Assembly: GCA_030390025.1 (NCBI GenBank)
Contig: CM059431.1
Location: 134,046,001 to 134,110,000, forward strand
Direction of reading: 5' to 3'
Length of the DNA: 64,000 nt
Origin: Squalus acanthias
Lineage: Eukaryota
Positions 3,193 through 62,438 of this stretch are shown piece by piece (within the stretch, counting starts at the first letter, position 1; each line of letters starts with the position of its first letter). The position numbers and the translations under genes are program-made. The notes beneath the pieces are model-generated. The model did not search any database. It saw nothing but the letters and a program-made list of their open reading frames with translations, and was not told where the DNA came from.

Positions 3193-5865
3193 CGGCAATG
3201 GTAGCGTAGTGGTTATGTTACTGGATTAGTAATCCAGAGGCCTGGACTAATGATCCAGAAACATGAGTTCAAATCCCACCACGACAGCTGGGCAATTTAA
3301 GTTCAGTTAATTAAATAAATCTGGAATATAAAGCTAGTATCAGTAATGGTGACCATGAAACTATCGGATTGTCGTAAAAACCCATCTGGTTCACTAATGT
3401 CATTTAGGGAAGGAAATCTGCCGTCCTTACCTGGTCTGGCCTATATGTGACTCCAGACCCACAGCAATGTGGTTGACTCTTAACTACCCTCTGAAATGGC
3501 CTAGCAAGCCATGCAGTTATAAAAAACCGCTACGAAAAACTTTAAGAATAAAACCGGACCTCGGCACCGGCTACGGAAACAGCAACGGCACACCCTGCAA
3601 AGTCCTCCTCACCAACATCTGGGGAATTATGCCAAAATTGGGAGAGCTGTCCCACAGACTAGTCAAGCAAACAGCCTGACGTAGTCATACTCACAGAATC
3701 AAACCTTTCAGCCAATGTCCCAAACTCCTCCATCACCATCCCACCAGCAGGACAGACTTGCCAGGGGTGGCGGCACAGTGGTATACAGTCGGGATTCCTC
3801 AACATTCAGTCCGGACCCCATGAAGTCTCTTGGCTTCAGGACAAGCATGGGCAAGGAAACCTCCTGCTGATTACCACCTACTGCCCTCCCTCACCTCAGC
3901 TGATGAATCAGTACTCCACTTGGAAGAAGCATGGAGGGTAGCAAGGGCACAGAATGTACTCTGGGTGGGGACTTCAATGTCCATCACCAAGAGTGGCTTG
4001 GTAGCACCACAGCTGGCCAAGTCTTGAAGGGCGACAGGTGGAGAACCAACACGAGGGAAAAACTTACTTGATCTACCTGTCGCAGATGCATCTGTCCATG
4101 ACAGCATTGGTAGCAGTGACCACCGCACAGTCACTGCGGAGATGAAGTCCCGTCTTCACACTGAGGACACCCTCCATCGTGTTGTGTGGCACTACCACCA
4201 TGCCAAATGGGATAGATTCAGAACAGATCTAGCAGCTCAAAACTGGGCATCCATGAGGCGCTGTGGGTCATCAGCAGCAGCAGAATTGTATTCCACCACA
4301 ATCTGTAACCTCATGGCCCGGCATATCCCTCACTTGACCATTACCATCAAGCCAGGGGACCAACCCTGGTTTAATGAGTGTAGAAGAGCATGCCAGGAGC
4401 AGCACCAGGCGTACTTAAAAATACGGTGCCGACCTGGGGAAGTTGCAACACATGCATGCTAAAAAGCAGAAGCAGCATGCAATAGAGAGAGCTAAGCGAT
4501 CCCACTATCAACGGTTAAGATCAAAGCCCTGAAGTCCTGCCACATCCAGTCGTGAATGGTGGTGGACCATGAAAAATCTAACAGGAGGAGAAGGCTCCAT
4601 GAATAGCCCCATCCCCAATGATGGTGGAGCCCAGCACGTGAGTGCAAAAGACAAAGCTGAAGCATTTTGCAACCATCTTCAGCCAGAAGTGCCGAGTGGA
4701 TGATCCATATCGGCCTACTCCTGAGGTCCCCACCATCACAGAAGCCAGTCTTCAGCCAACTCGATTCACTCCACGTGATATCAAGAAACGGCTGGGCACA
4801 CTGGATACAGCAAAGGCTGTGGGCCCCGACAACATCCCGGCTGTCGAGCTGAAGACTTGTGCTCCAGAACTAGCCGCACCTCTAGCCAAGCTGTTCCATT
4901 ACAGCTATAACACTGGCATCTACCTGACAATGTGAAAAACTGCCCAGGTATGTCCTGTCCACAAAAAGCAGGACAAATCCAATCCGGCCAATTACCGCCC
5001 CATCAGTCTACTCTCAATCATCAGCAAAGTGATGGAAGGTGTCGTCAACAGTGCTATCAAGCAGCACTTACTCATCAATAACCTGCTCACTGATGCCCAA
5101 AATGGGTTCCGCCAGGACCACTCGGCTCCCGACCTCATTACAGCCTTGGTCCAAACATGGACAAAGGAGCTGAATTCCAGAAGTGAGGTGAGAGTGACTG
5201 CCCTTGACATCAGGGCAGCATTTGACCGAGTGTGGCATCAAGGAGCCCTAGTAAAACTGAAGTCAATGGGAATCGGGGGGAAAACTCTCCACTGGCTGGA
5301 GTCATACCTAGCACAAAGGAAGATGGATGTGGTGGTTGGAGGTCAATCATCTCAGCCCCAGGACATCGCTGCAGGAGTTCCTCAGGGCAGTGTCCTAGGC
5401 CCAACCATCTTCAGCTGCTTCATCAATGACCTTCCCTCCATCATAAGGTCAGAAATGGGGATGTTCGCTGATGACTGCACAGTGTTCAGTGCCATTCGCA
5501 ACTCCTCAGATAATGAAGCAGTCCATGCCTGAATGCAACAAGACCTGGACGACATTCAGGGTTGGGCTGATAAGTGGCAGGTAACATTCGCGCCACACAA
5601 GTGCCAGACAATGACTATCCCCAACAAGCGAGCATCTAACACCGCCCCTTGACATTCAACGGCATTACCATCACCGAATCCCCTACCATCAATATCCTGG
5701 GGATCACCATTGACCAGAAACTTAACTGGACCAGCCACATAAATACTGTGGCAACAAGAGCAGGTCAGAGGCTGGCTATTCTGCAGCGAGTGTCTCACCT
5801 CCTGACTCCCCAAAGCCTTTCCACCTTCTACAAGGCACAAGTCAGGAGTGTAATGGAATACTCTC

Positions 5866-6074
5866 TGACATGAATCTTGTATGAAGTAATACTGGACGAC
5901 CTGCTGGTGGCGCTGTCCAGGGAGAGTATAAATACTCGGGCATGGGCCCAGCTTGCTTAGGACATTCCTCAACAGGAACTAGTAAAAGACACAACTAGAT
6001 CTCCATGTTGTAAAACAGTTGATTAAAGCTTTGTTTAACACTTAGACCAAGTGCCTAGTAGTTTTCTTACGTCA
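5866..6074 (+). repeat. 5' LTR
   Basis: Direct repeat of 9987-10195 with 9 substitutions counted by eye. Contains TATAAA and ATTAAA (6022-6027). Confidence 0.97.
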
Positions 6075-6174
6075 ATTTAATCAACTGGACCTGCTCCACG
6101 CTCTGAGTGGTTTTGGGAACAGACGGCTACGACTCAAACGGTAGAAGGGAACCAGGTATAATAATCAATCCATC

Positions 6175-9100
6175 ATGGAGAAACTACTCCAACCCGCCCG
6201 TCTCGACCTGGACCCGAATTCACCTACAACTGCTAAGGTATGGAAACACTGGTATCGTACCTTCAGCAACTACCTCAGGGCATGTGGTGAGAATGTTCCT
6301 GATAAGTTAGAGATACTTGCCAATTATGTATCCCCTTATCTGTTTGACTGTATCGAAGACTGTGTAGACTATGACTCCGCTATCCGAATACTATAGCAAC
6401 TATATGTTAAGGCCCCAAACGAAATTTTTGCTCGGCATCTACTGGCCACAACTCGACAACAACCCGGGGTATCACTTGACGAATTCCTTCAAAAGCTTCG
6501 CAGGCTCAGCAAAGATTGTAATCTCAAGGCTGTCTCAGCTGAGCAGTACCAGGAGGAGTTAATTCATGATTCTTTTATTAATGGAATTGCGTCTCCCTTC
6601 ATACGCCAGTGTCTGCTGGAGAATAAAACCCTCGAGTTACAAGCTGCCTATGACCAGGCATATTCTCTGGACTTGGCAAAAAAAAATGCAGATGCCTATC
6701 TTTTACCACATGCACGGACTGCTGCTATCACTTTTAGTGACTCCTCCGATAAGCCTCAGGCGGAAGCCCTCACTGATGATGACTCTATCCTAGCTGATGA
6801 CGACCCTACCTTAGCAGCATCTTGGCAATCTAAAAGGAAGTGTTTCTTCTGTGGAGGTGCATTTCATTATAGGAAATTTTGTCCTGCCCGTAATGCAATC
6901 AGCAATCATTGCAGTAAGAAAGGTCACTTCTCGAAAGAATGTCAGTCAAGAGCCTCTTCTAGGGTTACAGCTGCTCCCTATAAAACTGCTCCTCCCCCAA
7001 GAGTTACTGCTAATGTTACAGCTGTCATCTATAAAACTGCTCCTCCCCCAAGAGACACTACTAATGTTACAGCTGTCAAGGATAAAACTGCCCCTCCTCC
7101 CATCACAGCTGTTTTTCCCCAAAGCCTGTCCCATGCAGCCACGAAAGTTTCGGTAAATGGGCACATTTTTAGTGCATTAATCGACTCATGCAGCTCTGAC
7201 AGCTTCATCAGTGAGTTAAAACTGCGTATTTACCCCTCGGACAGGGAAATTGCAATGGCTGACGACACTGACCACTAACTCTTCCGGCTTTTGTCTTGTC
7301 GACCTTATTCTCAATGGCCGCACTTATTTCTCTACCCGGCTCGGGGTGCTCAAAAACCTATGCAGTGATGTGCTCCTGGGACAGGATTTCCAGAAACAAC
7401 ACAAAAGACTCACTTTCGAGTTTGGAGGATCAAAGCCGGAGCTTACTATTTCCAAAGTACCGTTTTGTGCACTTTCGGCGGCTTTGCGAGCCCTCCTTGT
7501 TTGCCAATCTTTCCCCCCGATATAAGCCCATAGCCACTAAATCACGATGTTTCAGCCAAGATGACCTATCCTTTATCGAGGCAGAGATCTCTCGCCTTCT
7601 AGCTGACGGTATCATTGAGCCATGTTCATCTTCCTGGCGGGCTCAAGTCGTCGTTGTTAAAAATCCTCTGAAGCAACACAAGAAACGTCTTTGCATCGAT
7701 TACTCGCAAACTATTAACCAGTATACCGACCTGGATGCCTACCCACTACCACGCATCGATGACATGGTCAATAACCTTGCTAACTACAAGGTATTTTCAA
7801 CTTTTGACTTAAAGAGCGCATACCATCAAGTACCGTTAAAGGACTCTGACAAAAAGTATACGGCTTTTGAGGCCAATGGTCGGCTTTACCAGTTTCGTCG
7901 CCTTCCATTCGGGGTCACCAATGGGGTGGCCGTCTTTCAATGGGCAATGGATAGCCTAGTCAAACAGGAGAACTTAACAGACACTTTTCCATATCTGGAT
8001 AATATCACCATTGCTGGTCATGACCAGAAGGAGCATGATGCCAACCTCCAGAAATTTCTTGACGTTCTCCGTCGTCGCAACTTAACCTTAAATGAGTCCA
8101 AGTCTGTGAAATCAGTACCATCAGTACCTCGGAATGTTCGCCTATTATGCGAAGTGGATACCTCACTTTTCTGACAAGATCCAGCCTCTGCTTCACGCAA
8201 AGTCATTTCCATTGGAGGCGAGGGCTATTTCAGCTTTCGACCTCTTCAAGCAACAACTGGTAAAAAGCCACGCTTCATTCCATCGATGAAAATCTCCCTT
8301 TCGTGGTCGAGTGCGATGCATCGGAGGTGGCGATCTCGGCTGCCTTGAATCAAGACGGTCGACCCGTTGCATTTCTGTCTAGAACTTTGCAAGGTAGCGA
8401 GCTCCATTATCCTCCTGTCGAGAAGGAGGCTATGGCTATCATCGAAGCAGTACGTAAATGGAGTCATTTTCTCGCTCGTTGCCATTTCACGCTCATAACT
8501 GATCAGCGCTTGGTGGCCTTTATGCTAGATAACCAGAAATCAAGAATAACAAAATACAGCTCTGGAGGATGGAATTGGCCGCCTTTGGCTACACCATACA
8601 GTATCGACTCGGCAAGGAGAATGTGGCCTCGGATACCCTCACGCGTGCATTCTGCTCTTCCATGTCAACTTCGACTCTTGCGGATCTTCATACTGACTTA
8701 TGCCATCCTGGCGTTACCCGTATGTTGCACTTTGTGCGATCTAAAAATCTCCCATTTTCTACTTAAGATGTGAAAAGAACATGCTCCACTTGTAGAATTT
8801 GCGCGGAATTAAAACCGCAATTCTTCCGTCCGTCGGATGGCTCGCTCATACACGCTACACAGCCTATGCAGCAACTCAGCATTGACTTTAAAGGGCCATT
8901 GTCTTCCTCAACGCGAAACACCTACTTGCTTACTATGGTGGACGAATATTCACACTTTCCCTTTGCTTTCCCCTGTCCCAATATGCTTACTTCCACAGTG
9001 ATCAAATGCCTCGATCAGGTCTTTTCCCAATGCGGTACGGCCAATTTCATCCACTCTGATCGGGGTCCCTCCTTCATGTCAAGCGAACTCAAAAGTTATC

Positions 9101-9946
9101 TTTCCCAACAGGAAATCACCACAAGTAAAACAACACCGTATCATCCTATTGGAAATGGACAGGTTGAGAGATACAACACTATCATTTGGAACGCTGTTCG
9201 TCTTGCACTGAGGTCACGCAATCTACCAGACCAGCAGTGGGAAACTATGCTCCCTGACGCGTTGCATTCCATCAGGTCTCTTCTTTCTACATCCATCAAT
9301 GTTACTCCTCACGAACGATTCTTCGGGTTCCAGCGTCGCTCCACTCATGGGACGTCCCTACCATCATGGTTGGCAGCTCCTGGCTCCGTGCTGCTCCGAA
9401 GATTTGTATAATCCTCCAAGAGTGATCCCCTCGTTGACGAGGTGGAACTAACGGATGTCAATCCTACATACGCGTACGTGTGGTACCCTGATGGCCGGGA
9501 GTCCAGTTTCACTTCGGGATCTGGCTCCCTGCCCAACCGGTCCCACGGACCCAATCGATAGAGAGATCCATATTAACGACGCCGATACTCCGCGCTCCTC
9601 CGAGGATGACGCCCTACCCGGGACATCAAGGGATCTGCCAGCTACTCCGCTGGATCAACCCGGGGAACAGAGCGCTCCCCGCGGGATGGCCACCCGAAGC
9701 CAGGACGCCGGTCAATTACCGGCTACTGAGCAGGATGAAGCCAGCTCTGCGCCGGTGGGGACCCGCACCCGGAGCCACGATCTCCCCAGTCCCCCTCAGG
9801 TCGATCAAGGCGACACGGACTCTGCCAGCCCGCCGGTACGAACCAAGCGACCTAGTGACCAAAACACGGTCCGAGGAGACGTGCCTTCCGGCCTCCAACG
9901 GAAATCCAAACAACTGCGTCTATTCTTAGTCCGGCTAATTCGGTAG
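6175..9946 (+). pseudogene. gag-pol of the Gypsy element, multiple stops and frameshifts
   Basis: Gag PARLDLDPNSP..WKHW, CFFCGG..H...CPA knuckle, protease LIDSCS, RT LCIDYS / FDLKSAYHQ / YLDN, RNase H VECDAS, integrase SIDFKGP / HSDRGPSF / NGQVER. Confidence 0.93.
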
Positions 9947-9986
9947 AAGGAAGCAGCCGGACTTCCAATCTTTCAGGCGGGAAGAA

Positions 9987-10195
9987 TGACATGAATCTTG
10001 TATGAAGTAAGACTGGGCGGCCTGCTGGTGGCGCTGTCCATGGAGAGTATAAATACTCGGGCATGGGCCCAGCTTGCTTAGGACATTCCTCAACAGGAAT
10101 TAGTGAAGGACACAACTAGATCTCCATGTTGGAAAACAGTTGATTAAAGCTTTGTTTAACGCTTAGACCAAGTGCCTAGTAGTTTTCTTACGTCA
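9987..10195 (+). repeat. 3' LTR
   Basis: Preceded by the polypurine tract and followed by TSD CTCTC. Confidence 0.97.
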
Positions 10196-11964
10196 CTCTC
10201 CACTTGCCTGGATGAGTGCAGCTCCAACAACACTCAAGAAGCTCGACACCATCCAAGACAAAGCGGCCCGCTTGATTGGCACCCCATCAACCATCTTAAA
10301 CATTCACTCCCTCCACCGCCGGTGTACTGTGGCTGCAGTGTGTACCTTCTACAAGATGCACTGCAGCAACTCGCCAAGGCTGCTTCGGGTGCACCTCCCA
10401 AACCCGTGACCTCTACCACCTAGAAGGACAAGGGCAGCAGATGCATGGGAACACCACCACTTCCAAGTTCCCCTCCAAGTCACACACCATCCTGACTTAG
10501 AAGTATATCGCTGTTCCTTCATCGTCGCTGGGTCAAAATCCTGGAACTCCCTCCCTAACAGCACTGTGCGAGTACCTTCACCACACGGACTGCAGCGGTG
10601 CAAGAAGGTGGCTCACCACCACTTCTCAAGGGCAATTAGGGATTGGCAATAAATGCTGGGCTTGCCAGCGACACCCACATCTCATGAACGAATAAAAAAA
10701 AAGTCCCTCATTGGCTGTAAAGTGCCTTGGGACATCCAGTGGTCATGGAAGGCGTTATAAAAAGTTTTTCTTTCTTTAACTGCAGGTGAAGATTTAGATG
10801 TGTATAGGGTGCATGCTAATGGAGAGAGTTTAAAATTTAATGCAGGCTAAATTGAAAAGAAATGAGAACAATTAAAGGAAAGGGGCAGAAAAGAGGGACA
10901 AACATCCTTGCAGTCTTATGAAAGGCTCAAAATGCATTTCAACACATCGGCAGTTTTTGCCAAGGCCAAAGCAGGACAGTCAAAAATGAATTGAAAGGAA
11001 ACCCAGTGTGCAGGCACGAGTCTGCAGGCAACTGATGGAGCAGCTCAATACCCAACCCCTGAGTAAAGATGGTGCTGCAGGACGTGATTGTGAGGAGGAT
11101 GGCCCTGGTTGGCAATCTTTGGTACCATTCTCACAAATGAGGTTTGCAGTAACCTGAAGGTCGGTGGAGGCAAATTTAACACCTGGATGTGCCAGCCCTA
11201 TCATGCATGGTAATTACAGGTGCTTCAGCAGATGGATAGCTCTGCATCTGCCTCTTTGCTTATTCAGGCCCAGCGAAGACAGTTTCAACATTTGTTGCCA
11301 GATATTGTTGACGGCATCTCTGTTGGTGTAACCAATTAGGCTGTGCTGGCTACTGATCACCTTGGCGTGCCTTCTTTCATGCAACACCATTTAAAGCATG
11401 GTACTTCTGTAAATGCAGCCAAAGCACAAAATGGGTGGAGATCTGGCATTACGGATCTCCAAACACTTTTCCAATCAGGTTTACCTGATCGTAAATATAA
11501 TTGCAAAGTGTACCTCGCTGTCTCTTTTTGTGTTCTTTACTCAGTGCGTAGTATCTCACTATGGTCAATATAAAGAATAATTTTATGAATGTGTGTTTCC
11601 AGCAGGGAGCCTTGCCAAGAAACTGTGGATGGACTGCCAATCAGGAACATGTGACAATTTCCCAATATGTGATCCTGACAAGCAAAACTCCTCATCAGAA
11701 GCACATATTTATACATCAGTCATATATAGTGTGCAATTAATCTGCTTCACCAACTGCATAATGTCTCTCTTTAGTGTGTGCTACTTACTACAGTGCCCAT
11801 TTTTGGTATGCTTTATTCAGTACTTTGTGTCATCAAGGGAATTGTATACTCACATCAGTCATGTTGCTGACTTACCAGCAAGTTTCATACTTCATAAAAT
11901 CGTACAATGTTAGTAGATGATACAAGTATCTTAGATACCAGTTACTGGGAAGGATCTACATCTG

Positions 11965-27384: not shown

Positions 27385-29795
27385 CTGGGATGTGGGTGTC
27401 GCTGGCAAGGCCAGCATTTATTGCCCATCCCTAATTGCCCTCGAGAAGGTGGTGGTGAGCCGCTTTCTTGAACCACTGCAGTCTGTGTGGTGAAGGTACT
27501 CCCACAGTGCTATTAGGTAGGGAGTTCCAGGATTTTGACCCAGCGATGATGAAGGATCGGCGATATACTTCTACATCAGGATGGTGTGTGACTTGGAGGG
27601 GAACTTGGAGGTGGTGGTGTTCCCATGTGCCTGCTGCCCTTGTCCTTCTAGGTGGAAGAGGTCGCGGTTTTGGGAGGTGCTGCCGAAGAAGCCTTGGCGA
27701 GTTGCTGCAATGCATCTTGTAGAAGGTACACACTGCAGCCACGTTACGCCGGTGGTGGAGGGAGTGAATGTTTAAGGTGGTGGATGGGGTGCCAATCAAG
27801 CAGGCTGCTTTGTCCTGGATGGTGTCAAGCTTCTTGAGTGTTGTTGGAGCTGCACTCATCCAGGCAAGTGGAGAGTTTTCCATCACACTCCTTACTTGTG
27901 CTTTGTAGATGGTGGAAAGGCTTTGGGGAGTCAGGAGGTGAGACACTCGCCGCAGAATACCCAGCCTCTGACCTGCTCTTGTTGCCACAATATTTATGTG
28001 GCTGGACCTGTTAAGTTTCTGGTCAATGGTGACCCCCAGGATGTTGATGGTGGGGGATTCAGCGATGGTAATGCCGTTGAATGTTAAGGGGCGGTGGTTA
28101 GACTCTCGCTTGTTGGTGATAGTCATTGCCTGGCACTCCTGTGGCGCGAATGTTACCTGCACTTATCAGCCCAAGCCTGAACGTCGTCCAGGTCTTGTTG
28201 CATGGGGCATGGACTGCTTCATTATCTGAGGAGTTGAGAATGGAACTGAGCACTGTGTAATCATCAGCAAACATCCCCACTTCTGACCTTATGATGGAGC
28301 GAAGGTCATTGATGAAGCAGCTGAGGATGGTTGGGCCTAGGACACTGCCCTGATAAACTCCTGCAGCAATGTCCTGGGACTGAGATGATTGTCCTCCAAC
28401 AACCACAATCATCTTCCTTTGTGCGAGGTATGACTCCAGCCAGTGGAGAGTTTCCCCCCCCCCCCACCCCCCGATTCCCATTGACTTCAACTCTACTAGG
28501 GCTCCTTGATGCCACACTCGGTCAAATACTGCCTTGATGTCAAAGGCAGTCACTCTGACCTCACCCCTAGAATTCAGCTCTTTCGTCCCTGTTTGGATCA
28601 AGGCTGTAATGAGTTCGGGAGACGAGTGGTCCTGGCGGAACCCAAACTGAGCATCTGTGAGTAAGTGCCACTTGATAGCACGGTCGATGACCCCTTCCAT
28701 CATTTTGCTGATGATTGAGAGTAGACTGATGGGGCGGCAATTGGCTAGATTGCATTTGTCCTGCTTTTTGTGGACAGGACATACCTGGGCAGTTTTCCAC
28801 ATTGTCGGGTAGATGCCAGTGTTGTAGCTGTACTGGAACAGCTTGGCTAGAGGCACAGCTAGTTCTGGAGCACAAGCCTTCAGCACGATAGCCGGGATGT
28901 TGTCGGGGCCCATAGTCTTTGCTGTATCCAGTGCGCTCAGCCGTTTCTTGATATCACGTGGAGTGAATCGAATTGGCTGAAGACTGGCTTCTGTGATGGT
29001 GGGGACCTCAGGAGGAGGCCGAGATGGATCAATCACTCAGCACTTCTGGCTGATGATGATTGCAAACGCTTCAGCCTTGTCTTTTGCACTTGCGTGCTGG
29101 GCTCCACAATCATTGAGGATGGGGATATTCATGGAGCCTCCTCCTCCCATTAGTTGGTTAATTGTCCACCACCATTCACGACTGGATGTGGCAAGACTGC
29201 AGAGCTTTGATCTGATCTGTTGATTGTGGGATTGCTTAGCTCTGTCTATACCATGCAGCTTTCACCAGATTAGCACCTCATTTTTAGGAATGCCTGGCTG
29301 CTGCTCCTGGCATGCTCTTCTGCACTCCTCATTGAACCAGGGTTGGTTCCCTGGCTTGATGGTAGTGGTAGAGTGAGGGATATGCTGGGCCATGAGGTTA
29401 CAGATTCTGGTGGAATACAATTCTGCTGCTGCTGATGGCCCACAGCGCCTCATGGATGCCCAGTTTTGAGCTGCTAGATCTGTTCTGAATCTATCCCATG
29501 TAGCATGGTGGTAGTGCCACACAACACGATGGAGGGTGTCCTCAGTGTGAAGACGGGCTTTCGTCTCCACAAGGACTGCAATAGGTAGATTGGTGAGGAT
29601 GAGGTCAAGTAGGTTTTTCCCTCGTGTTGGTTCTCTCACCACCTGCCGCAGTCCTAGTCTGGCAGCTATGTCCTTCAGGACTCGGCCAGCTCAGTCAGTA
29701 GTGGTGCTACCGAACCACTCTTGGTGATGGACATTGAAGTTCCCCACCCAGAGTACATTCTGTGCCCTTGCCACTCTCAGTGCTTCTTCCAAGTT
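27385..29795 (-). mobile_element. LINE family A copy, decayed
   Basis: ORFs 28098-29036 and 27431-28162 match the 4142-5873 and 10212-10409 peptides; ends HHLLEGN*. Confidence 0.92.
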
Positions 29796-43531: not shown

Positions 43532-46500
43532 GAGGAGAGGAAACTGGGGGAGAAAGAGCAAAGGATGGCAACAGATGGCAAAGGAGCTCCCTAGGGAGCT
43601 GCCAGCCCAGGAGCCATCTTGTCATGTGACGCAAGGTTAAAGTTACCTGAGCCCACTGCCCATCCCCCGACCATGCCTGTTCTTTGTTCTCATTAGTGAG
43701 CACTGGCTCTTCACTTAAACTTAGCTTCCAAATTCCCAGACCTCTCTGCCATCAAGACTACGCTTCTCCACTGGACTAGTAATCTAGCGACTAGTGGATC
43801 GCGAGTGGAGCTCGGGGCCAGGGATCGCGAGAATATCAGTGCTAATTTAATCCTGTGAGAGACAGCATCACTCATGTCCGAGGCCAGAAACCAAGAGCGC
43901 TCAAAGACCAGCAGCAAGGTCAAGACCCAGGAGTGGCGCAGTGTGGACCAGCAGCGGGGTTGGGGCCCAGGGAAGGTGCGGCACGGACCAACAGCGAGGG
44001 CGGGAGGACCACAATGCATCCTACGGAACCCAGGCAGAGAGGACCTGCGGGAAGGAGGGAGGAGGACAGTAGGAGTATGTTTGTGTGTGTGTGTTAGGCC
44101 ATTGTAGCAGAGCCTGGTCTCCAATCGTCTTGGATCCCCTTGCCATTGGACCAAGACCTTGCTCTGTCAAGCCCGTGTGGTAGCTGGTGTGCAACGGCCA
44201 CCCCACGTTAAAATTCACGCACAGGCATCTTCCACCCTTTAAAATGAAGTTCGGGACCTGGAACGTCAGGACCCTCATGGACAACCCCAACAGTGACAGA
44301 CCGGAATGCCGTACTCCTATCGTTGCCCGGGAGCTCAGACGTTTTGACATTGACATCGCCGCCCTAAGTGAGACCCGGCGGGCAGGGGAAGGACAGCTCA
44401 AGGAGCAAGGTGGTGGCTACACCTTCTTCTGGAAAGGCAAACCTGAAGAAGTACGCCGCCCCCATGGGGTAGGCTTTGCCATAAAAAATGAACTAGTTCG
44501 GCGTCTCAGAGACTCCCTTAGCAGTATAAACGAGTGCCTCATGACTCTTCAGCTCACCCTAGCCCGGAACCAGTGTGCTATGGTCATCAGTGCGTACGCC
44601 CCAACACTGGAAGCCACAGACGAGACCAAAGAGGAATTCTACTCCAGCCTCGAACAATCCCTGTCCCGAGTTCCAACGGGCAACAAGCTGATCCTCCTTG
44701 GCGATTTTAACGCCAGAGTTGGAAAGGACACAGACCTCTAGGGAGGTGTGATCGGCAGAGAGGGGGTAGGGAAAGCCAAGTCCAACGGTACCCTCCTCCT
44801 GACGAAATGCTTAGAACATGGCCTTGTCATAACCAACACCTTGTTCCGGCAGAGAGACAAGTACAAGGCTTCATGGCAGCACCCTCGCTCCAAGCACTGG
44901 CATCTGCTGGACTATGTCATCGTCCGAGCGAGGGACCGCAAGGACATCCGCATTACCACAGGAGCTGACGACTGCTGGACAGACCACCGCCTAATCCGCT
45001 CTGTCATCTCCATCAATGTAGCCCCAAAACAGCAGCGGCAACAGAAACAATGCCGCAGGAAAATCAACGCTGGAGCACTCAAAGACCCCGCTAAGAAAGC
45101 CCTATTCAGCCTGCGCCTCACAAACAACCTGACGACTCCCAGTGATTCAGAGACACAGAGTGTCCACAGCGCCTGGTCTGTACTCAAGGCCTCCATAATC
45201 AGTACCTGTGAAGAGACGCTCGGTCACTCGACCAGGAAACACCAAGACTGGTTCGATGATAACGACCAGGAGATCCAGGAGCTAATAAGCCGCAAGCGCA
45301 AGGCATTCCTGATCTGGAAACAGCAACACAACTCAAGAGCAAGAAAGCAGCTCTACAGACGCCTGAAGGCCGAGGTCCAACAAAAAACTCGCGACCTAAA
45401 GAACAGATGGTGGGTGGAGAAAGCGCAGGAGATCCAGCAGCTAGCCGACAACCATGACGTGCGTGAATTCTTTAGCGCAGTCAAGACCATCTACAGCCCA
45501 AGCACCCAAGGTCCTACCCCACTGCGGGCCAAGAACGGATAGGTACTCATCAAGGTCAGGGAGGCAGTCAATGCCCGCTGGAAGGAGCACTTCGAAGATC
45601 TCCTTAACCGAGACTCTGTCTTCGACGCGAGTGTCCTCAACTCCATCCCGCAGCATGCTACCCGCCACCATCTCAGCACAACCCCAGCCCGGCTTGAGGT
45701 TGAAAAGGCCATCCGACAACTGAAGAACAACAAGGCCTCAGGAGCAGATGGAATCCATGCCGAGGCGCTAACGCATGGCGGAGAAGCACTACTGGCGTGA
45801 ATTCAGGAACTCATTTCTCTTATCTGGAAGGAGGAGAGCATGCCAGGGGATCTCAGAGACGCCGTAATTGTGACCATCTTCAAGAAAGGTGAAAAGTCCG
45901 ATTGCAGTAATTACAGAGGAGTTTCCCTGCTGTCTGCCACAGAGAAAGTCATCGCAAGAATCCTCCTCAATCGCCTTCTCCCAGTGGCTGAAGAGCTCCT
46001 CCCAGAGTCGCAATGCGGATTCCGCCCACTAACGGGCACAATGGACATGATTTTCACCGTGCGCCAATTACAAGAGAAATGCAGGGAACAGCACCAACCG
46101 CTGTACATGGCCTTCTTTGACCTCACAAAGGCCTTCGACACTGTCAACCGTGAGGGATTATGGAGTGTCCTCCTCAAATTCGGCTGCCCTCAAAAGTTTG
46201 TCACCATCCTCCGCCAGCTTGACGCTGACATGCAAGCCGTGATCCTGACCAACGGTTCCACCACAGACCCAATTCATGGATGGACCGGGGTCAAGCAAGG
46301 CTGTGTCATTGCACCAACGCTCTTCTTGATCTTCCTTGTTGCAATGCTTCATCTCACCCTCAGTAAGCTTCCCGCTGGAGTGGAGCTAATTTACAGAACA
46401 AACGGGAAACTGTTCAACCTCCGTCACCTCCAGTCCAGATCCAAGGTCGTCCCTTCCTCTGTCATCGAATTACAGTATGCAGACGACGCTTGCGTCTGCA

Positions 46501-53019: not shown

Positions 53020-54013
53020 TCACCCCCTACTATAGCTCCACTCCGTATCCCATCCCCCTGCCAAGTTATTTAAACCCCCCCCAACAGTACTAGCAAACCT
53101 CCTCACAAGGATGTTGGTCCCGTTCCGGTTCAGGTGCAACCCGTCCGACTTGTACAGGTCCCACCTTCCCCAGAAGCAGACCCAGTGATCCAGGAAACTA
53201 AAGCCCTCCCTCCTGCACCAACTCTTTAGCCACGCATTCATCTGCTCTATCCTCCTATTCCTGTACTCACTAGCACGTGGCACCGGGAGTAATCCAGAGA
53301 TTACAACCTTTGAGGTCCTGCTTTTTAATCTGCTACCTAGCTCCCTAAATTCTTGTTGCAGGACCTCATCCCTCTTTCTACCCATGTCGTTGGTACCAAT
53401 GTGAACCACGACCTCTGACTGTTCGCCCTCCCCCTTCAGAATGACCTGCAGCCGTTCAGTGACATCCTTGACCCTGGCACCAGGGAGGCAACATACCATC
53501 CTGGAGTCACGTCTGCGGCCACAGAAAGGCTAATCTGTTCCCTTACGATAGAATCCCCTATCACTATTGCTCTCCCACTCTTTTATCTCCCCTCCTGTGC
53601 AGCTGAGCCAGTCGTAGTGCCACGGACTTGGCTCTTGCTGCATTCCCCTGAGAAACCCTCTCCCCCATCAGTATCCAAAACGGAAAATCTGTCGGAGAGG
53701 GAGATGGACCCAGGGGACTTCTGCACTACCTTCCTAGTTCTTTTACTCTGTCTGGTGGTCACCCATTCCCTGTCTGCCTGTGCACTCTTTACCTGCGGTG
53801 TGACCACCTTGTTAAACGTGCTATCCACGAAGATCTCAGCTTCGCGATGCTCCACAGTGACTCCAGCTGCAGCTGCAGCTCCGAAACGTGGATTTCGAGT
53901 AGCTGCAGCTGGAGACACTTCCTGCACATGTGTTTGCCCTGGACACCTCAAGTGTCCCTGACTTCCCACATAGCACAGGAGGAGCACTCCACGCTGCCGA
54001 GCTGCCCTGCCAT
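53020..54013 (-). pseudogene. CR1 ORF1, zinc finger plus SGNH/GDSL esterase-like domain
   Basis: ATG at 54013 gives MAGQLGSVECSSCAMWEV...CRKCLQL; later VIGDSIV, CLPGA, HIGTND and DGLHLN. Frameshifted. Confidence 0.9.
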
Positions 54014-54226
54014 GTCCTACCCTTAATTTACTCCCTTTAAATTAAAGAATATTAAATACACTAGGGACCTTACTTCCCTTTAAACACTACTTACTCTAAA
54101 CTAGAGACCTTACTTTTACTTTAAATACCATAGAAATACTCACCACTGGTTCTCTGTCCCCTCTTGTGCAGCTTTTTAGCTCCTGCTCTCCTGGAAGCTG
54201 ACAAAGATGGAAAAAGAAAGGAACAC

Positions 54227-54449
54227 CTCCCACCCTCCCACCCCCCTCCCTCCCACCCCCCTCCCTCCCTCCCCCCTCCTCCCTCCCTCCCCCCCTCCTC
54301 CCCCCCTCCTCCCCCCTCCTCCCTCCTCCCTCCTCCCCCCTCCTCCCTCCTCCCCCCCTCCTCCCTCCTCCCTCCTCCTCCCTCCTCCCTCCTCCCTCCT
54401 CCCTCCTCCCTCCTCCCTCCTCCCTCCTCCCTCCTCCCTCCTCCCTCCT
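54227..54449. repeat. (CCTCCCT)n / C-rich microsatellite in the CR1 5' region
   Basis: Nearly pure pyrimidine tract with a 7-nt period in its right half. Confidence 0.95.
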
Positions 54450-55949
54450 CTCGCAGTTTAACACTCTGTTCCGATCTGCACTCCGTGACAAACTGCAATC
54501 TAGCCTCCCTTATTTATACTGCTGAGATTTAAATAAGTGAGCTCTCTGGCAGTTACAGAACCAGATTAGACCACTTAATTAATTAATTACTCTCACCTGC
54601 TCTCCAGCACAGAGCTTGCTAAGCCCTGCCCAAGCCTGGAAGAAATTTAAATGCTAATTGCAAGCATACAAGACTAGAATTTATAAAAATAAGAGATTAA
54701 CCTTTAAGATTCACTCCCTCACTCACCAAACTCGCAGCTTAACACTCTGTTCCGATCTGCGCTATGATTCTACAAGTGATGGACGGTGTCATCGACAGTG
54801 CTATCAAGTGGCACTTACTTACCAATAACCTGCTCACCGATGCTCAGTTTAGGTCCAGACCTCATTACAGCCATTACAGCCAAACATAGACAAAAGAGCT
54901 GAATTCCAGAGGTGAGGTGAGAGTGACTGCCCTTGACATCAAGGCAGCATTTGACCAAGTGTGGCATCAAGGAGCCTTAGTAAAATTGAAGTCAATGGGA
55001 ATCGGGAGAAAACTCTCCACTGGCTGGAGTCATACCTAGCATAAAGGAAGGTGGTTGTGGTTGTTGGAGGCCAATCATCTGAGCCCCAGGACATCGTTGC
55101 AGGATTTCCTCAGGGCAGTGTTCTGAGCCCAACCACCTTCAGCTGCTTCACCAAAGACCTTCCCTCCATCATAAGGTCAGAAGTGGGAATGTTCGCCGAT
55201 GATTGCATCGTGTTCAGTTCCATTTGCAACTCCTCTGATAATGAAGCAGTCCATGCCTGCATGCAGCATGACCGGGATGACATTGCAGCTTGTGCTGAGA
55301 AGTGGCAGGTAACATGTGTGTCACACAAGTGCCAGGCAATAACAATCTCCAACAAGAGCGTCTAACCACCGCCCCTTGACATTCAATGACATTACCATCA
55401 TCAAATCCCCCACCATCAACATCCTGGGGTCACCATTGACCAGGAACTTAACTGGACAAGCCACATAAATACTGTGGCTACAAGAGTAGGTTAGAGGCTG
55501 GGTATTCTGTGGCGAGTGTCTCACCTCCTGACTCCCCGAAGACTTTCCACCATCTGCAAGGCACAAGTCAGGAGTGTGATGGAATACTCTCCACTTGCCT
55601 GGATGAGCACAGCTCCAACAACACTCAAGAAGCTCGACACCATCTATGACTAAGCAGCCCATTTGATCGGCACCCCATCCACCACCTTAAACATTCACTC
55701 CCTCCATGGCTGCAGTGTGTACCATCCACAAGATGCACTGCAGCAACTCGCCAAGGCTTCTTCGACAGCACCTCCCAAACCCGGGACCCCTACCACCTAG
55801 AAGGACAAGGACAGCAGGCGCATGGGAACACCATCACCTGCAATAACCTCACTTTACCCTACATTATACTCCATCTGCCACCTTACTGCCCACTCACTTA
55901 ATCTACCTCTATCCCTTTGCAGACTCTTTGTGTTCTCCTCACAGCTTAC

Positions 55950-58900
55950 TGAGAGGGAGGGATTCAGAGGGGGGAGAGACAGAGGGAATCGGAGGGGGGC
56001 GGGAGAGGGGATCGGAGGGGAGAGAGCGAGGGAATCGGAGGGAGGAGGGAGATAGGTAATTGGAGGGGGGAGAGGGAATCGGAGGGGGTGAGAGAAATGT
56101 AGTCAGAGTGGGAGAGAGAGGAAATTGGAAGGTGAGAAAGAGAGATGGAATCGGAGGGGAGAGAGAGAGAGGGAATCGGAGGGGGTAAGAGAGTAGGAAT
56201 CGGAGCGGGAGAGAGAGAGAGAATTGGGGGAGAGAGAGGGAATCAGAGAGGGGAGAGAGAGAGGGATTCAGAGGAGGGAGAGACAGAGGGAATCGGAGGG
56301 GGTAAGAGAGTAGGAATCGGAGTGGGAGAGAGAGAGAGAATTGGGGGAGAGAGAGGGAATCAGAGAGGGGAGAGAGAGAGGGATTCAGAGGGGGGAGAGA
56401 CAGAGGGAATCGGAGGGGGGAGAGAGAGAGCTGGTTGGAAAGTGAGAAAGAGAGAGGGAATCGGAGGGGAGAGAGAGAGAATCGAAGAGCGGAGAGGGGA
56501 GAGGGGATCGGAGGGGGAGAGAGAGGGAATCGGGGGGGAGAGAGAGAGAATCGAAGAGCGGAGAGGGGAGAGGGGATCGGAGGGGGAGAGAGAGGGAATT
56601 GGGGGGGGAGAAAGAGAGAATCGAAGAGGGGAGAGGGGATCGGAGGGAGGAGGGAAATAGGGATTCAGTTGGGGGAGAGAAGAAATCGGAGGTGGAGAGA
56701 GAGGGTCAGAGGAAGAGAGAGAGGGGGATCGGAGGGAGAGAAAGAGAGAATTGGTGGAGGTGGAGAGAGAGGGAATCGGGGGAGAGAGGGGGCACCGGAG
56801 GGAGCTAGAGGGAATCGGAGGGTAGAGAAAGAGGGGATGGGAGGGGGAGACAGAGGGAATCTGACGGGGAGAGAGAGGGGAATCGGAAGGGGGTGAGAAA
56901 GAGTGGGAATATGGGAGAAAGAGAGGGGATCGGAGTGGGAGAGAGAGAGTGGGGATCTGAGAGGGAGAGAGGGAGAGGATCAGAGGGGGAGAGAGAGAGA
57001 GAGAATCGGAGGGGGGGAGAGAGAGAGAGAGAATCGGAGGGGAAGAGAGAGAGAGAGAGAATCGGAGGGGAGAGAGGAAATCGGGGGAGAGAGGGGTAAT
57101 CGGAGGCAGGGAGAGAGGATCGGAGGGTGGAGAGAGAGAGAATCGGAGGAGAGAGAGGTAGGGGAGAGAGGGATTGGAGAGGGAGAGAGAGGGAATCGGA
57201 GGGGGAGAGGGAGGGGAGAGAGGGATTGGAGAGGGAGAGAGAGGGAATCGGAGGGGGAGAGGGAGGGAATCGGAGGGGGAGAGGGAGGGGAGAGAGGGAT
57301 TGGAGAGGGAGAGAGAGGGAATCGGAGGAGGAGAGGGAGGGAATCGGAGGGGGAGAGGGAGGGCATCGGAGGGAGAGAGAGCCGATCGGATGGGGAAAGA
57401 GAAGGAATTGGAGGGGGAGGGAGAGGGATTCTGATGGGGAGAGAGAGAGGGAATCGGAAGGGGGCGAGAAAGAGTGGGAATCGGGCAGAAAGAGAGGGGA
57501 TCGGAGTGGGAGAGAGGGAGAGAATCGCAGGGAGAGAGAGAGGGGGAATCGGGGAAGATAAAGAGGGGTCGGAGGGGAAGAGAGAAAGGGAATCGGAGGG
57601 GGGAGAGAGGGAATTGGGTGGAGAGAGAGAGGATCAGAGATTGTAGAGTTTCGCAATTATCGCGATTCAAAATAACATGAGAGAAGCAGATTCAATTGAT
57701 CATTTTTATTAAACGAAATGCTGTCCTGATAATAAAGGACACAGAAGCCTGTAAAATGGCCACCGCGCATCGTGGCAGAAGCTTCCAGAGACACAGTGGG
57801 CAGACAAGATGGCGTCGAATACACATTCAGTATGAGATCGGATCATACTCGGTACACATTGTAAAGACAGGATGCAACCCGTTCGCATCTTGAACAATAG
57901 CAATGATATAAGTGCTGGAATCGTTTCCTACGCACAGTAAGGATCATTGAACTGGGCCATCGAGAACCCATCCAGACACATCAATACACAAATACCCCCC
58001 CGGCTCAACAATGAGAGAGACATTGGCGGGTGATTAAGCCAGTATTCGGGGGGCCCCAAAACCAGTCGAGGAGACGATTCATACACATCCTGGCTGGCTC
58101 AACAATGGAGAAGGTATTAATGGATAGTTGGTCAGTTTCAGGTGCTACCGAAACCCGTTAAGATAATCGCCCCATGCTGGGAGTTTTGAGCGCCAAAATC
58201 ACACAAAGAATAACATTTAGATTTGAGCGGGAGATAAGGCCGACAAAGCAGTATAACTATAGGGGACAAATGTCCATCAGTCGCTTGACTCGCTCTCTCG
58301 CTTCCTGGCCTCTCTCTCTTGACTCTTGCTGAACTCTTCCTTGACTCTGGGCTCTGGATTCTCTTGACTCTCGCTTCCTGGCCTCGCTTTTGACTCTTCC
58401 TGAGCTCTTGCTGGACTCTTTTGACTCTTGACTCTTAGCCGTGCTGGTCGGTTATTCGAGTGTTGGGTGGAGCTCAATCGGAACGAGCCGCCTCGACAGA
58501 GCAAGTAACAGGGTACACCATCCCGAGTGTCGGTAAACGGTGTCCGGACCCGGAGGCCCGAGTGACGAGAAGAAAGACGAGAAGAAAGACGAGAAGAAAT
58601 TCCACGTGCCGCCGCGGTCAGTAAACCCCGACCGCTCCCGAAGATATAACGACAGAACTCATCTTTGAATTCTACCGACTACTACATGTACCGTTTCTTT
58701 TGAATTCTACGGATTACTGCACGATCCGGTCTGAAATCCATCGACTGCTTCGTGACATCAGGGAATCTGGCTTACCTTTCGCGGCAGCGAGAGTAAACAA
58801 GTGGGGTGCAGAAACCCTCACAACCACGTGACAGTCAGGCACTGCAGCGAAACGAGCTGAGTGCCCCACTTTAAATTTCCGAAGTAAGCCGAGTGGTGAG

Positions 58901-61900
58901 CATGTTTTCCGATCCTACAAATCCAGACGTAGTTTAGGTATATTGAGGGAGGGTGGTTTTTCTAAGGTTAATGTATAATGTGTTCCCCCTTTTACGATGT
59001 GTCGTGTGTTCCTCATTTCCATAGACCAACTTTTATGAACGTGTGTATACTTGTACTCTCTTTGATCTGCGCCTATGACATGTATTTCATGATTTTAGAC
59101 GCCATGCAATAAAGATATTCATTTTGTGCTATTCAACCGAGTCTATTTGAGTTTTCTCTGCATTACTGCTCCTTGCATCTAAGTCCAGGTGTCAGAACCG
59201 TAAGGGCAGAGTGGGTCGAACCACTCACAGGTGCTTATTGCAAAAGTCTGGCCGGAGACCAGAGCAAGCAATAGTATAGGCAACGAAGGCCTCACCTCGC
59301 ACCAGTACCGTGACCCCTTACAAGATGGAGAGAGGGAATCGGAGGGGGCAAGAGAGAGGGAATCGGAGGGGGGAGAGAGGGAGTTGGGCGGAGAGAGAGA
59401 GGATCAGAGATGGAGAGAGGGGATCAAAGCGGAGAGAGGGAATCAGGGGAGAGAGAGGGAATTGGAGGGAGGGAGAGAGAGAGTGTGGGAATCGGGGTAG
59501 AGAAAGAGGGGATCGGAGGGGGAGAGTGAGAGCGAATCGGAGGCCAGAGATAATCAGAGGGAGAGAAAGAGGGGTTCGGAGGGAGAGAGAGGAAATCGGA
59601 GGGAGAGGAGGGAGAGGGAATCCGAAGGGGAGAGAGAGGGGGAATCGGAGGGGGGAGAGAGAGAGAGAGAGGGAATCGGAGGGGGGAGAGAGAGGGAATT
59701 GGAGTGGGGAGAAGAGGGGATCAGAGGGAGAAGAGAGGGGATCGGAGGAGGAGAGAGAGGGGATCGGGGAGGAGAGAGAGGATCAGAGTGAGAAGAGAGG
59801 GAATCAGAGGTGGGAGAGAGAGGGGAAGTCGGAGAGTGGGAGAGAGAGGAGGAGGAGAGAGAGAGGAGGAGGGGAGAGAGAGGAGGAGGGGAGAGAGAGG
59901 AGGAGGGGAGAGAGAGAGAGGAAGGGAGAGAGAGAGAGGAGGGGGAGAGAGAGGGAATCGAAGGGGGGAGAGAGAGAGAGGGAATCGGAGGCCAGAGATA
60001 ATCAGAGGGAGAGAAAGAGGGGTTCGGTGGGAGAGGGAATCAGAAGGGGAGAGAGAGGGGGAATCGGAGGGGGGAGAGAGAGGGAATTGGAGTGGGGAGA
60101 AGAGGGGATCAGAGAGAGGAGAGAGAGGGGATCGGAGGAGGAGAGAGAGGGGATCGGAGGAGGAGAGAGAGGGGATCGGAGGAGGAGAGAGAGGGGATCG
60201 GGGGGGAGAGAGAGGATCAGAGTGGGGAGAGAGCGGATCAGATTGGGGAGAGAGGGAATCAGAAGTGGGAGAGAGGGAATCAGAGGTGGGAGAGAGAGGG
60301 GAAGTTGGAGAGTGGGAGAGAGAGGAGGAGGAGAGAGAGGAGGAGGGGAGAGAGAGGAGGAGGGAGAGAGAGAGAGAGGAGGGGGAGAGAGAGAGAGGAG
60401 GGGGAGAGAGAGAGGAGGGGGAGAGAGAGAGGAGGGGGAGCGAGAGGGAATTGGAGGGGAAGAGAGAGGGAATTGGAGGGGAAGAGAGAGGGTATCGGAG
60501 GCGGAAGAGGAGAGCGGATCAGAGGGGAAGAGAAAGAGGGGGCCGTAGGGGGCAGAGAGTTGTAATCGGGGAGTGAGAGAGGGAATCGGAGCGGAGAGAG
60601 AGGGAATCGGAGGGGGAAGAGAGAGAATCAGAGGGAAGAGAGGGAATCGGAGGGGGAAGAGAGAGAATCAGAGGGAAGAGAGGGTATTGGAGGGGGGAGA
60701 GAGGGGGAATCAGAGGGGTGAGAGAGAGGGGAGAGAGGGAATTGGAGGGGAGAGAGGGAACTAGAGGGGTGAGGGAGAATTGGAGGGGCGAGAGGGAATC
60801 GGAGGGGATAGTGAATCGGAGTGGGGAGCGAGGCTCAGAGAGCGGAGAGGGGGAGGTGGGAGAGAGGGAATTGGAGGGGGGAGAGAATGGGGAAATCGGA
60901 GCAGGGGAGAGAGGAGGGGAGAGAGAGAGAGGAGGGTGAAAGAGAGGGCATTGGAGGGGAAAAGAGAGGGTATCGGCGGGGGGAGGGAGAGAGAAGGTAT
61001 CAGGGAGAGAGAGGATATCGAGGAGAGAGAGTTAGGGAATTGGAGGGGCAGAGAGAGGGGGAATCGAAGGAGAGTGGGGGAATTGGAGGGGGAGAGAGAG
61101 GGAATCGGAGGGGGGAGAGAGTGGGAATCAGAGAGGGGAGGGAGAGAGAGGGTATCGGGGAGAGAGAGAGAGAGTATCGAGGAGAGAGAGTTAGGGAATT
61201 GGAGGGGGAGAGAGAGGGAATCGGAGGGGGGGAGAGAGTGGGAATCAGAGAGGGGAGGGAGAGAGAGGGTATCGGGGAGAGAGAGAGAGAGTATCGAGGA
61301 GAGAGAGTTAGGGAATTGGAGGGGGAGAGAGAGGGGGAATCGAAGGAGAGAGTGGGAATTGGAGGGGGAGAGAAAGGTAATCGGAGGGGGGAGAGAGAGG
61401 ATCGGATGCGGAAAGAGAGAGAGGGAATTGGAGGGGGAGAGAGCGTGGGCATTGGGGCGAGAGAGAGAGGGAATCGGAGCGGGGAGAGAGAGAGAATCGG
61501 AGGGGGAAGATAGGGAATTGGAGGGGGAAGAGGAGCGGGGATCGTAGGGGGAGAGAGAGGGGATCAGAGGGGGGGCAGAGAGAGGGTATCAGAGGGGGGG
61601 CAGAGAGAGGGTATCGGGTGGAAGGAGAGAGGGAATCGGAGGGGAGAAAGAGAGAATCGGACGGGGAAGAGAGAGAGCGGATCGGAGGCGGGGAGAGAGT
61701 GTGAATCAGAGGGGAGAATCTGAGGGGATAGAGGGAATCGGGGGGGGAGAGAGAGGATCAGATGGGTGACAGGGAATCGGAGGGGAGGGAGAGCGAATCG
61801 GAGGGGAATGAGAGAGAGGGTCGGAGGGAGGGGAGAGAGAGGGGCAAGAGGGAATCGGAGTGGGGAGAGAGGGAATCGGAGGGGAGAGAGGGAATCGGAG

Positions 61901-62222
61901 GGGTGAGAAAGGGAAGTAGAGGGGTGAGAGAGAGAATCGGAGGGGAGAGAGGGAATTGGAGGGGAGAGAGGGAATCGGAGGGGGGCGAGAGGGAATCGGA
62001 GCGGGGAGAGATGGAATCGGAGGGGTGAGAAAGGGAAGTAGAGGGGTGAGAGAGGGAATTGGAGGGGAGAGAGGGAATCGGAGGGGAGAGAGGGAATCGG
62101 AGGGGAGAGAGGGAATCGGAGGGGAGAGAGGGAATCGGAGGGGAGAGAGGGAATCGGAGGGAGAGTGAATTGGAGTGGGGAGGGAGGATCAGAGAAGGGA
62201 GAGAAGGAATCAGAGGTGAGGG
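55950..62222. repeat. GA-rich degenerate satellite (core GAGAGAGGGAATCGGAGGGG), split by a solo LTR
   Basis: Recurrent GGAATCGGAG/GGAATTGGAG motif spaced by G/A runs, with local higher-order duplications. All ORFs here are low-complexity artefacts. Confidence 0.95.
57642..59322 (+). mobile_element. Solo LTR, 1681 bp
   Basis: TGTA...TACA termini and 4-bp TSD AGAT (57638-57641, 59323-59326). The empty site GGATCAGAGATGGAGAGAGGG is present in the satellite at 59401. TATA-like at ~58252 and AATAAA at 59108-59113. Confidence 0.85.
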
Positions 62223-62438
62223 AATGCTTCAAAAACCTCGACATGCCACCATCTCAACCTGTGCACACACTGTATAAACCGCCACATCCCCAACACTCAC
62301 CCACCAACTTTGCCCACCAACCATAAGTCACATCCACATCTCACGCCCTGCATACATTAACAGCTATTCAACTATGGTAGGCACATCTGCCAAACACATA
62401 GCTGCACACTCACTCACACGCTTTCCTTTTTCTTGGAG

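Follow-up and report, generated by a model that had tools for sequence, protein, structure and literature searches.

How does a Gypsy retrotransposon start minus-strand DNA synthesis when the primer-binding site (PBS) that follows its 5' long terminal repeat (LTR) is not of the tRNA type? An element of the spiny dogfish, Squalus acanthias, raises this question. It occupies positions 5866-10195 (4.33 kb) of a 64,000-nucleotide stretch of the 3.7-Gb host genome, which we refer to as the window; all coordinates are window positions, and all features lie on the + strand. A first-pass annotation had noted that the PBS is complementary to the element's own LTR across the poly(A) signal, and had suggested priming of the kind known from Tf1. 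There, according to passages of PMC7175516, bases 1-11 anneal to the PBS, and RNase H cleaves between bases 11 and 12. Self-priming with a three-duplex structure is presented as a common feature of the Tf1/sushi chromoviruses in portions of PMC10085805, PMC4600332, and PMC5341516. From comparisons of sequences, we conclude that the helix between LTR and PBS is real, conserved, and very probably the self-primer for minus-strand DNA synthesis.

The element has the anatomy of Ty3/Gypsy (Metaviridae), with TG...CA LTRs, a target-site duplication, a polypurine tract, and the domain order PR-RT-RH-INT. A 5-bp duplication, CTCTC, lies at 5861-5865, and the same letters follow the 3' LTR at 10196-10200. 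The two 209-bp LTRs (5866-6074 and 9987-10195) are 95.7% identical by BLASTN (200/209), and the polypurine tract precedes the 3' LTR at 9975-9986. The coding region keeps the order Gag-PR-RT-RH-INT in pieces split by stops and frame changes. Its ORF pieces and the Gag profile of the clade identify a Mag-like gag with two zinc knuckles and the start of the protease at 6175-7275, where the frame is interrupted by a stop at 6394-6396 and then by a frame change further on. The reverse transcriptase (RT) at 7482-8120 matches Pfam RVT_1, and its catalytic motif reads YLDN, not YxDD. RNase H, the putative primer-cutting enzyme, follows at 8288-8557 (Pfam RT_RNaseH, E 4.5e-25), and the integrase, with a zinc finger and core in two frames and no chromodomain, is recognized from ORF pieces and Pfam at 8533-9408.

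The element is inserted in a partial copy of a repetitive, RT-encoding (LINE-like) element that covers 4936-5865 and resumes from 10196 onward, and further copies of that repeat lie at 27871-28035 and 55427-55591. Long ORFs tested in the window were mostly RT fragments, and those at 44742, 46569, 62278, and 62762 had no Pfam match. The single ARAGORN call in the window and the loci then examined is a tRNA-Thr-like sequence at 3195-3286, probably the head of a SINE, and long GA-rich degenerate tandem arrays with units of ~19-25 nt extend over 54000-62300. The LTR is ~100-fold deeper than the internal region in contig sets, suggesting many solo LTRs, although contig depth is a poor measure.

The 12-nt complementarity of the first-pass annotation is exact. 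After a one-base spacer (A6075), which is also present in aligned relatives, the PBS at 6076-6087 is the reverse complement of an LTR segment at 6016-6027, the candidate self-primer arm in R. No TGG occurs 0-5 nt past the LTR end, confirming that a TGG tRNA-type PBS is absent. The arm is the same in both LTRs, as had been claimed, with none of the nine LTR-LTR differences falling inside it, and it ends with ATTAAA (6022-6027); the 3' part of the LTR has no other canonical poly(A) hexamer. A perfect 12-mer at any of six offsets against a 209-nt LTR of the given composition has a chance of ~1.6e-4, and when the 280-nt region was dinucleotide-shuffled, 12 bp was reached in 0/40 trials. The helix has a mean pair probability of 0.97 in folds and is confined to the 5' LTR, again as proposed, since the arm copy at 10137-10148 in the 3' LTR has no PBS partner downstream. 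Regional folding energy alone is not significant (z -0.64, and z -1.6 in a second test). Both 12-mers are unchanged in 30/30 of the best genomic copies, which is weak evidence alone at the ~96% identity of these copies.

The arm and the PBS across the lineage

We listed 120 homologues with RTs 59-75% identical, the full-length ones being single ORFs of ~1,200 aa. Among the matches listed, named homologues come from crustaceans, a soft coral, a sea cucumber, a leafhopper (insect), and a ray. The test set consisted of the 34 of 80 metagenome loci with a Gag start and enough upstream DNA, together with the window and one sister-family copy, giving 36 loci in 24 families. Of the 24 families with a testable 5' end, 18 have one or more copies with a perfect helix of 11-18 bp, and each of these 18 beats 40/40 shuffles. 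One of the remaining six families reaches 9 bp, and five fail the automatic inverted-repeat test. Reading by eye, which was not blind, found a 15-bp helix at another copy of one failing family (L058), a PBS-like stretch kept with the arm absent in two (L068 and L080), and no visible LTR end in the last two (L047 and L109). A set fetched later, with 7 testable among 11 loci from about four families, one of them already in the first set, yielded five helices of 13-14 bp, one of 10 bp, and one decayed copy with 7 bp. Scans of viral contigs recovered no relatives of the clade. Lineage elements also occur in contigs filed under bacterial MAGs (L134-L144), most likely as host DNA carried into the bins.

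The two sides of the helix follow one another from family to family. Across 19 LTR-end-anchored representatives, an arm and its own PBS pair on average at 10.8 of the inner 11 positions, versus 7.3 for cross pairs, with 15 different arm 11-mers among them. Pairing often reaches 16-19 nt in relatives; helix positions 12-16 are paired above background, in 18, 16, 11, 15, and 11 of 19 representatives, respectively. Among the first 11 pairs, conservation is lowest at the innermost (16/19). The register, one base past the LTR end, is fixed in most families, and TGG is found within 5 nt of the LTR end in 0/23 representatives. A Mag-type family of the same genome served as a control: in copies with both LTRs identified, TGG follows the LTR, and the self-match of the family is at most 7 nt. 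The PBS thus follows each family's own LTR, making a tRNA or half-tRNA primer very unlikely.

Compensatory change, the check suggested in the first-pass annotation, is evident in a 21-row alignment, where 13 of 16 pairs have changed on both sides, a count to be read with the knowledge that kinship among sequences inflates such covariation and that the rows were picked for having the helix, leave out the failures and three one-mismatch rows, and come in part from one family. None of 500 shuffles of these 21 rows reaches the observed covariation score, and slid controls pair at 26-48%, versus 92% in the true register. L048 and L034 are separated by one change that affects the two LTR arms and the PBS in concert.

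Chimeric genomic copies and the 3' end of the primer

We searched the host genome for copies in which the PBS is followed by the complement of LTR sequence that normally lies upstream of the arm. Among 245 exact LTR-end/PBS junctions, 11 are chimeric, running into the inverted upstream LTR without a leader. Other junctions continue with AAA (13/245) or GAA (9/245), probably the leaders of other subfamilies. The inverted LTR continues past 5959 to the end of the fetched sequence, at 5931-5933, in 11/11 chimeras, and we therefore rejected the idea that the inverted copy stops at the transcription start site (TSS). When a gap of 0-30 nt was left free, 8/8 matches joined at the arm end plus the spacer complement. 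This arm-side join proves nothing alone because the arm/PBS homology itself fixes it.

Five of the chimeras are informative (L154, L157, L159, L160, and L163). Their minus-strand U5 copy begins at or near the LTR terminus, and they fold back into the sense strand at differing points near 6048, 6054, and 6055, represent two subfamilies, and have unrelated flanks and no leader. The minus-strand end, which the search pattern left unconstrained, falls at 6027-6028 in four copies and at 6025-6028 in one. If all five are independent, a uniform null over a 100-nt range gives a probability of ~2e-6 that the ends cluster within 3 nt. Such a common end at the arm edge is expected if the RNA is cut there to make the primer. 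The putative cleavage site that frees the primer 3'-OH thus lies within 6026-6028, between 6026 and 6027 or between 6027 and 6028, and microhomology leaves the last base ambiguous in one or more of the informative chimeras. The cut may be between 6026 and 6027, because the complement of A6027 is present in all five copies and helix conservation is lowest at the innermost pair. Retroviral integrase trims two bases beyond CA, and a cut at this position may leave two such bases for trimming. The simplest reading of the five copies is that minus strong-stop DNA ran off a template cut at the arm edge; it would then have turned back on itself, copying its own start together with the attached primer, before jumping to 3' R.

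The other six chimeras are palindromes compatible with several routes. Four of them (L158, L161, L162, and L164) have a common left end at 6006 within four different flanks, this being a cryptic TG/CA end on which a 4-base palindrome is centred, and the allele at variable position 6011 is common to both arms in 5/6 palindromic copies. One exact search pattern retrieved 0 chimeras from the sister family, and a pattern search for poly(A)-tailed retrocopies likewise returned 0.

The most serious alternative accepts the helix as real and selected but attributes the chimeras to host DNA template switching at the inverted repeat, which would make them uninformative on priming and leave the mechanism to rest on covariation alone. 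Two 12-bp repeats inverted 48 nt apart can drive fold-back at the DNA level, the six palindromes need no RNA step, and a left end centred on a short palindrome fits the same route. Template switching fits the informative copies poorly, however: all five end at the LTR terminus amid unrelated flanks, without a leader and with the PBS-side spacer base present, and they share the same minus-strand end despite different fold-back points, so that two separate events would be needed per copy. We consider this account unlikely and favour a cut at the arm edge that frees the self-primer.

Transcription start and poly(A) signal

The length of the self-primer depends on where the transcript starts. The first-pass annotation had linked Tf1-style priming to a TSS at ~6016-6017 and had viewed a start ~30 nt after the TATA box as contradicting it. 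The TATA box (5927-5934) lies 90-92 nt before the arm 11-mer in the window family and in the sister family (L112), and it points to a TSS at ~5958-5959. Since it is kept in 29/30 copies and in the sister family, a start near 5959 appears at least as likely as one at ~6016-6017. An upstream TSS would lengthen the primer, not refute self-priming, because a long 5' tail would not stop the cut that yields the 3'-OH. TATA at this spacing is absent in 17/19 family representatives. TATA ~30 nt before the arm is absent in 19/19 families, unlike in our control chromovirus, L150, which has TATA 35 nt before its 9-bp arm as read by eye; the primer of the lineage may accordingly carry a long 5' tail. Pairing that often reaches 16-19 nt also speaks for an upstream start.

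In favour of a start at the arm, an (A/T)GY motif that resembles the initiator consensus follows a T-rich run and lies 11-9 nt from the helix's inner end. The G ten bases from the inner end (18/19) was considered as an initiator fixing an 11-nt primer and was rejected, as pairing extends beyond it and the G therefore does not fix the TSS. There is about an even chance that a TATA-driven start near 5959 yields a primer of about 68-70 nt, with only its 3' 12 nt paired. A start at the arm, giving a primer of about 11-12 nt, is a reasonable possibility that falls short of even, and both start sites may be in use. Four contig sets of guessed RNA type have no apparent start, end, or poly(A) tail and are uninformative either way.

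A canonical hexamer ends the arm in 14/23 representatives in all (11/19 in the first set) and lies 10-32 nt downstream of the arm in three more, with none in L046 and L097. The helix is kept without a canonical hexamer in the arm in L043, L045, L046, and L097. Masking of the poly(A) signal is thus not the general purpose of the helix, because several helix-bearing families lack such a hexamer in the arm. The helix might nevertheless also hide the signal at the 5' LTR while leaving the 3' LTR free, as the first-pass annotation had suggested, a secondary role for which the case is evenly balanced.

These observations bear on a reading in which the sole function of the helix is to mask the 5' poly(A) signal and a tRNA fragment or another small host RNA primes. 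The frequent hexamer at the arm end and a helix that can form only at the 5' LTR would suit this reading, Copia half-tRNA primers are described in the accessible part of PMC6317226, and our host tRNA comparison was limited to one tRNA-like sequence. Yet the PBS letters vary and track each family's own LTR, as reflected in the diversity of arm 11-mers, which a conserved tRNA cannot do, and the four families noted above keep the helix with no hexamer in the arm to mask. A foreign primer would also leave the arm free and provide no reason for minus-strand DNA to stop at 6025-6028. We regard priming by a foreign RNA as very unlikely. Priming from the other end of the transcript is more improbable still. 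Here, the arm copy in the 3' LTR, at the RNA 3' end, would pair with the PBS and prime after trimming at the poly(A) signal. The arm does end at the hexamer, and the inverted copy passes 5959 to at least 5931-5933 in all 11 chimeras, entering RNA sequence found only at the 3' end. This U3 part is equally explained by a jump to 3' R via arm homology or by fold-back of plus-strand DNA; uncut 5' RNA predicts run-through of the arm, yet 5/5 informative copies stop at its edge, and the local 5' helix is stable in folds. Chance complementarity in AT-rich sequence, to which the nonsignificant folding z-scores and the occasional 10-11 bp (once 15 bp) reached by shuffles of relatives' regions might be credited, is refuted by the family shuffles, the excess of own over cross pairing, and the two-sided changes, besides the rarity of the window match and the register fixed in most families.

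The proposal of self-priming has thus been strengthened by lineage-wide covariation, the lack of TGG, and chimeras that end at the 3' edge of the arm. In the proposed mechanism, the R-region arm of the 5' LTR anneals to the PBS over the 11-18 bp seen in the sequences, and the RNA would be cut at the 3' edge of the arm, a step that the chimeric copies support. By analogy to Tf1, the element's own RNase H would make this cut. The freed 3'-OH would prime copying of the spacer and U5, and the resulting strong-stop DNA would end at the cut and jump to 3' R.

Placement of the lineage and comparison with known systems

The first-pass annotation described the element as Mag-like with no chromodomain seen. 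No chromodomain is present in near-full-length relatives (0/39 and 0/16, or 0/55), and the Tf2-type SH3 module is likewise absent; the positive control, L150, matches both Chromo and SH3_Tf2-1. The Mag-like label holds for Gag, as the Gag profile of the clade matches Mag-type loci down to E 2.5e-25 and matches neither L150 nor the errantivirus-type loci at E 1. It does not hold for RT-RNase H (RT-RH), which forms a separate clade outside Mag. Two RT-RH trees, both quick trees, unite the lineage as a single long-stemmed clade (SH-aLRT 100) that is not nested in the Mag group (94-99). The names of the outgroup clades, including the "Mag" label of the references, are provisional assignments from RT motifs. 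Helix-bearing loci are spread over the 36-row core of the clade, which is the part that the helix data cover; the deeper 12-14 proteins are known from protein alone. The single chromovirus reference, L150, falls outside the clade in a quick tree, and an AU test did not reject joining the two (p 0.5). A sister tie to the chromoviruses is therefore not rejected, and self-priming may have originated independently. The host genome, when searched, yielded no usable chromovirus reference, the ESM Atlas returned generic RT clusters only, and PDB matches were to Ty3 and caulimovirus RTs, which are not clade-informative.

The YxDN motif occurs in 91 of the 120 homologues listed, with 17 carrying YLDD and 12 unmatched. 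It is also present in the young sister family (L111 and L112), which has LTRs that are 99.5% identical and an open frame, and helix-bearing YxDD members exist too. A literature search on the YxDN RT motif found nothing. Two further observations concern other elements. A retrovirus-like host family (L131-L133) has a second RNase H-like domain before the integrase and presumably resembles the lokiretroviruses, and a 2,387-aa single ORF (L145) joins gag-pol to a baculovirus-F-type envelope domain.

We found no publication on self-priming in a non-chromovirus animal Gypsy lineage, nor any on a primer ending in a poly(A) signal or on integrated fold-back copies, in a literature search whose scope lay outside the primary Tf1 papers, the original Cigr-1 paper, Butler 2001, Repbase, and GyDB. 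The accessible sections of PMC6238403, PMC8220671, PMC3670739, and PMC10680173 contain nothing on priming in such a clade, and a term search on priming in PMC2774666 gave no matches. That self-priming in this lineage has been described before is conceivable, if not likely. Whether hairpin priming is ancestral or has arisen repeatedly is discussed in part of PMC3601003, where an ancestral state is considered possible, and a second large Gypsy lineage with self-priming bears on this question. Retroviruses copy the primer into the PBS, according to an excerpt of PMC7472051, and such copying could also couple arm and PBS in the window lineage. If the elements do self-prime, they would be independent of tRNA, their PBS would be out of reach of silencing by 3'-tRNA fragments, and "no PBS" calls in annotation would be accounted for. 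Aberrant integrated copies would then also offer a general genomic way to map primer cuts without RNA data. A fuller scenario, which we offer tentatively and think doubtful as a whole, is that an animal-wide lineage gained self-priming independently of Tf1/sushi, that its primer is a long 5' fragment, capped and with the poly(A) signal as its paired 3' end, that one helix serves both to silence the 5' poly(A) site and to mark where RNase H cuts, and that most members use a natural YxDN RT.

The closest functional parallels are Tf1 and Tf2 of Schizosaccharomyces pombe and the Tf1/sushi group, which likewise belong to Ty3/Gypsy, lack a tRNA PBS, and have a PBS complementary to R, as described in portions of PMC7175516, PMC10085805, and PMC4600332. 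The window lineage resembles Tf1, as far as passages on Tf1 describe it, in its paired core of ~11 bp and in a predicted cut at the 3' boundary of the paired region. It is unlike Tf1/sushi in having neither chromodomain nor Tf2-type SH3 module, in its Mag-like Gag and long separate RT-RH stem, in a putative primer that ends in a poly(A) hexamer in most families, and in the YxDN motif of most of its RTs. The three-duplex "pretzel" of Tf1, as depicted in parts of PMC10085805, is not evident in minimum-free-energy folds of 19 representatives, which contain variable local hairpins and were computed without pseudoknots. Stem length gives no support for a conserved hairpin after the arm, being no better there (3.9) than in shuffles (3.7). 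A 4-base stem motif recurs in 9/12, versus 2.5 expected.

Outside Tf1/sushi, self-priming is likewise predicted from LTR-PBS complementarity for Tcn1 chromoviruses of non-seed plants and fungi and for the Copia elements TAR, Houba, and Osr-1, in sections of PMC6317226. TAR indicates that the trait occurs outside the chromoviruses too, and both Tcn1 and TAR differ from the window lineage in superfamily or clade and in hosts, on the evidence of the same sections, where we found no mention of an animal Gypsy lineage that lacks the chromodomain.

The Mag clade (Mag, SURL, and Gulliver) shares with the lineage a homologous Gag, a single compact ORF, short LTRs, and the lack of a chromodomain. Unlike Mag, the lineage has an RT-RH that is 23-35% identical to that of the same-genome Mag-type family, which carries a TGG tRNA PBS. 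Cigr-1 of Ciona intestinalis, about 4.2 kb long with short LTRs and one ORF of ~1,210 aa, matches the lineage in these features and in combining an echinoderm-Mag-like Gag with a non-Mag RT. By this general description, the lineage is probably Cigr-1 or a close relative. The Cigr-1 clade is also reported from molluscs in the accessible text of PMC6238403. The lineage very probably works like Tf1, but it fails the chromodomain test of Tf1/sushi and is not Mag by its RT.
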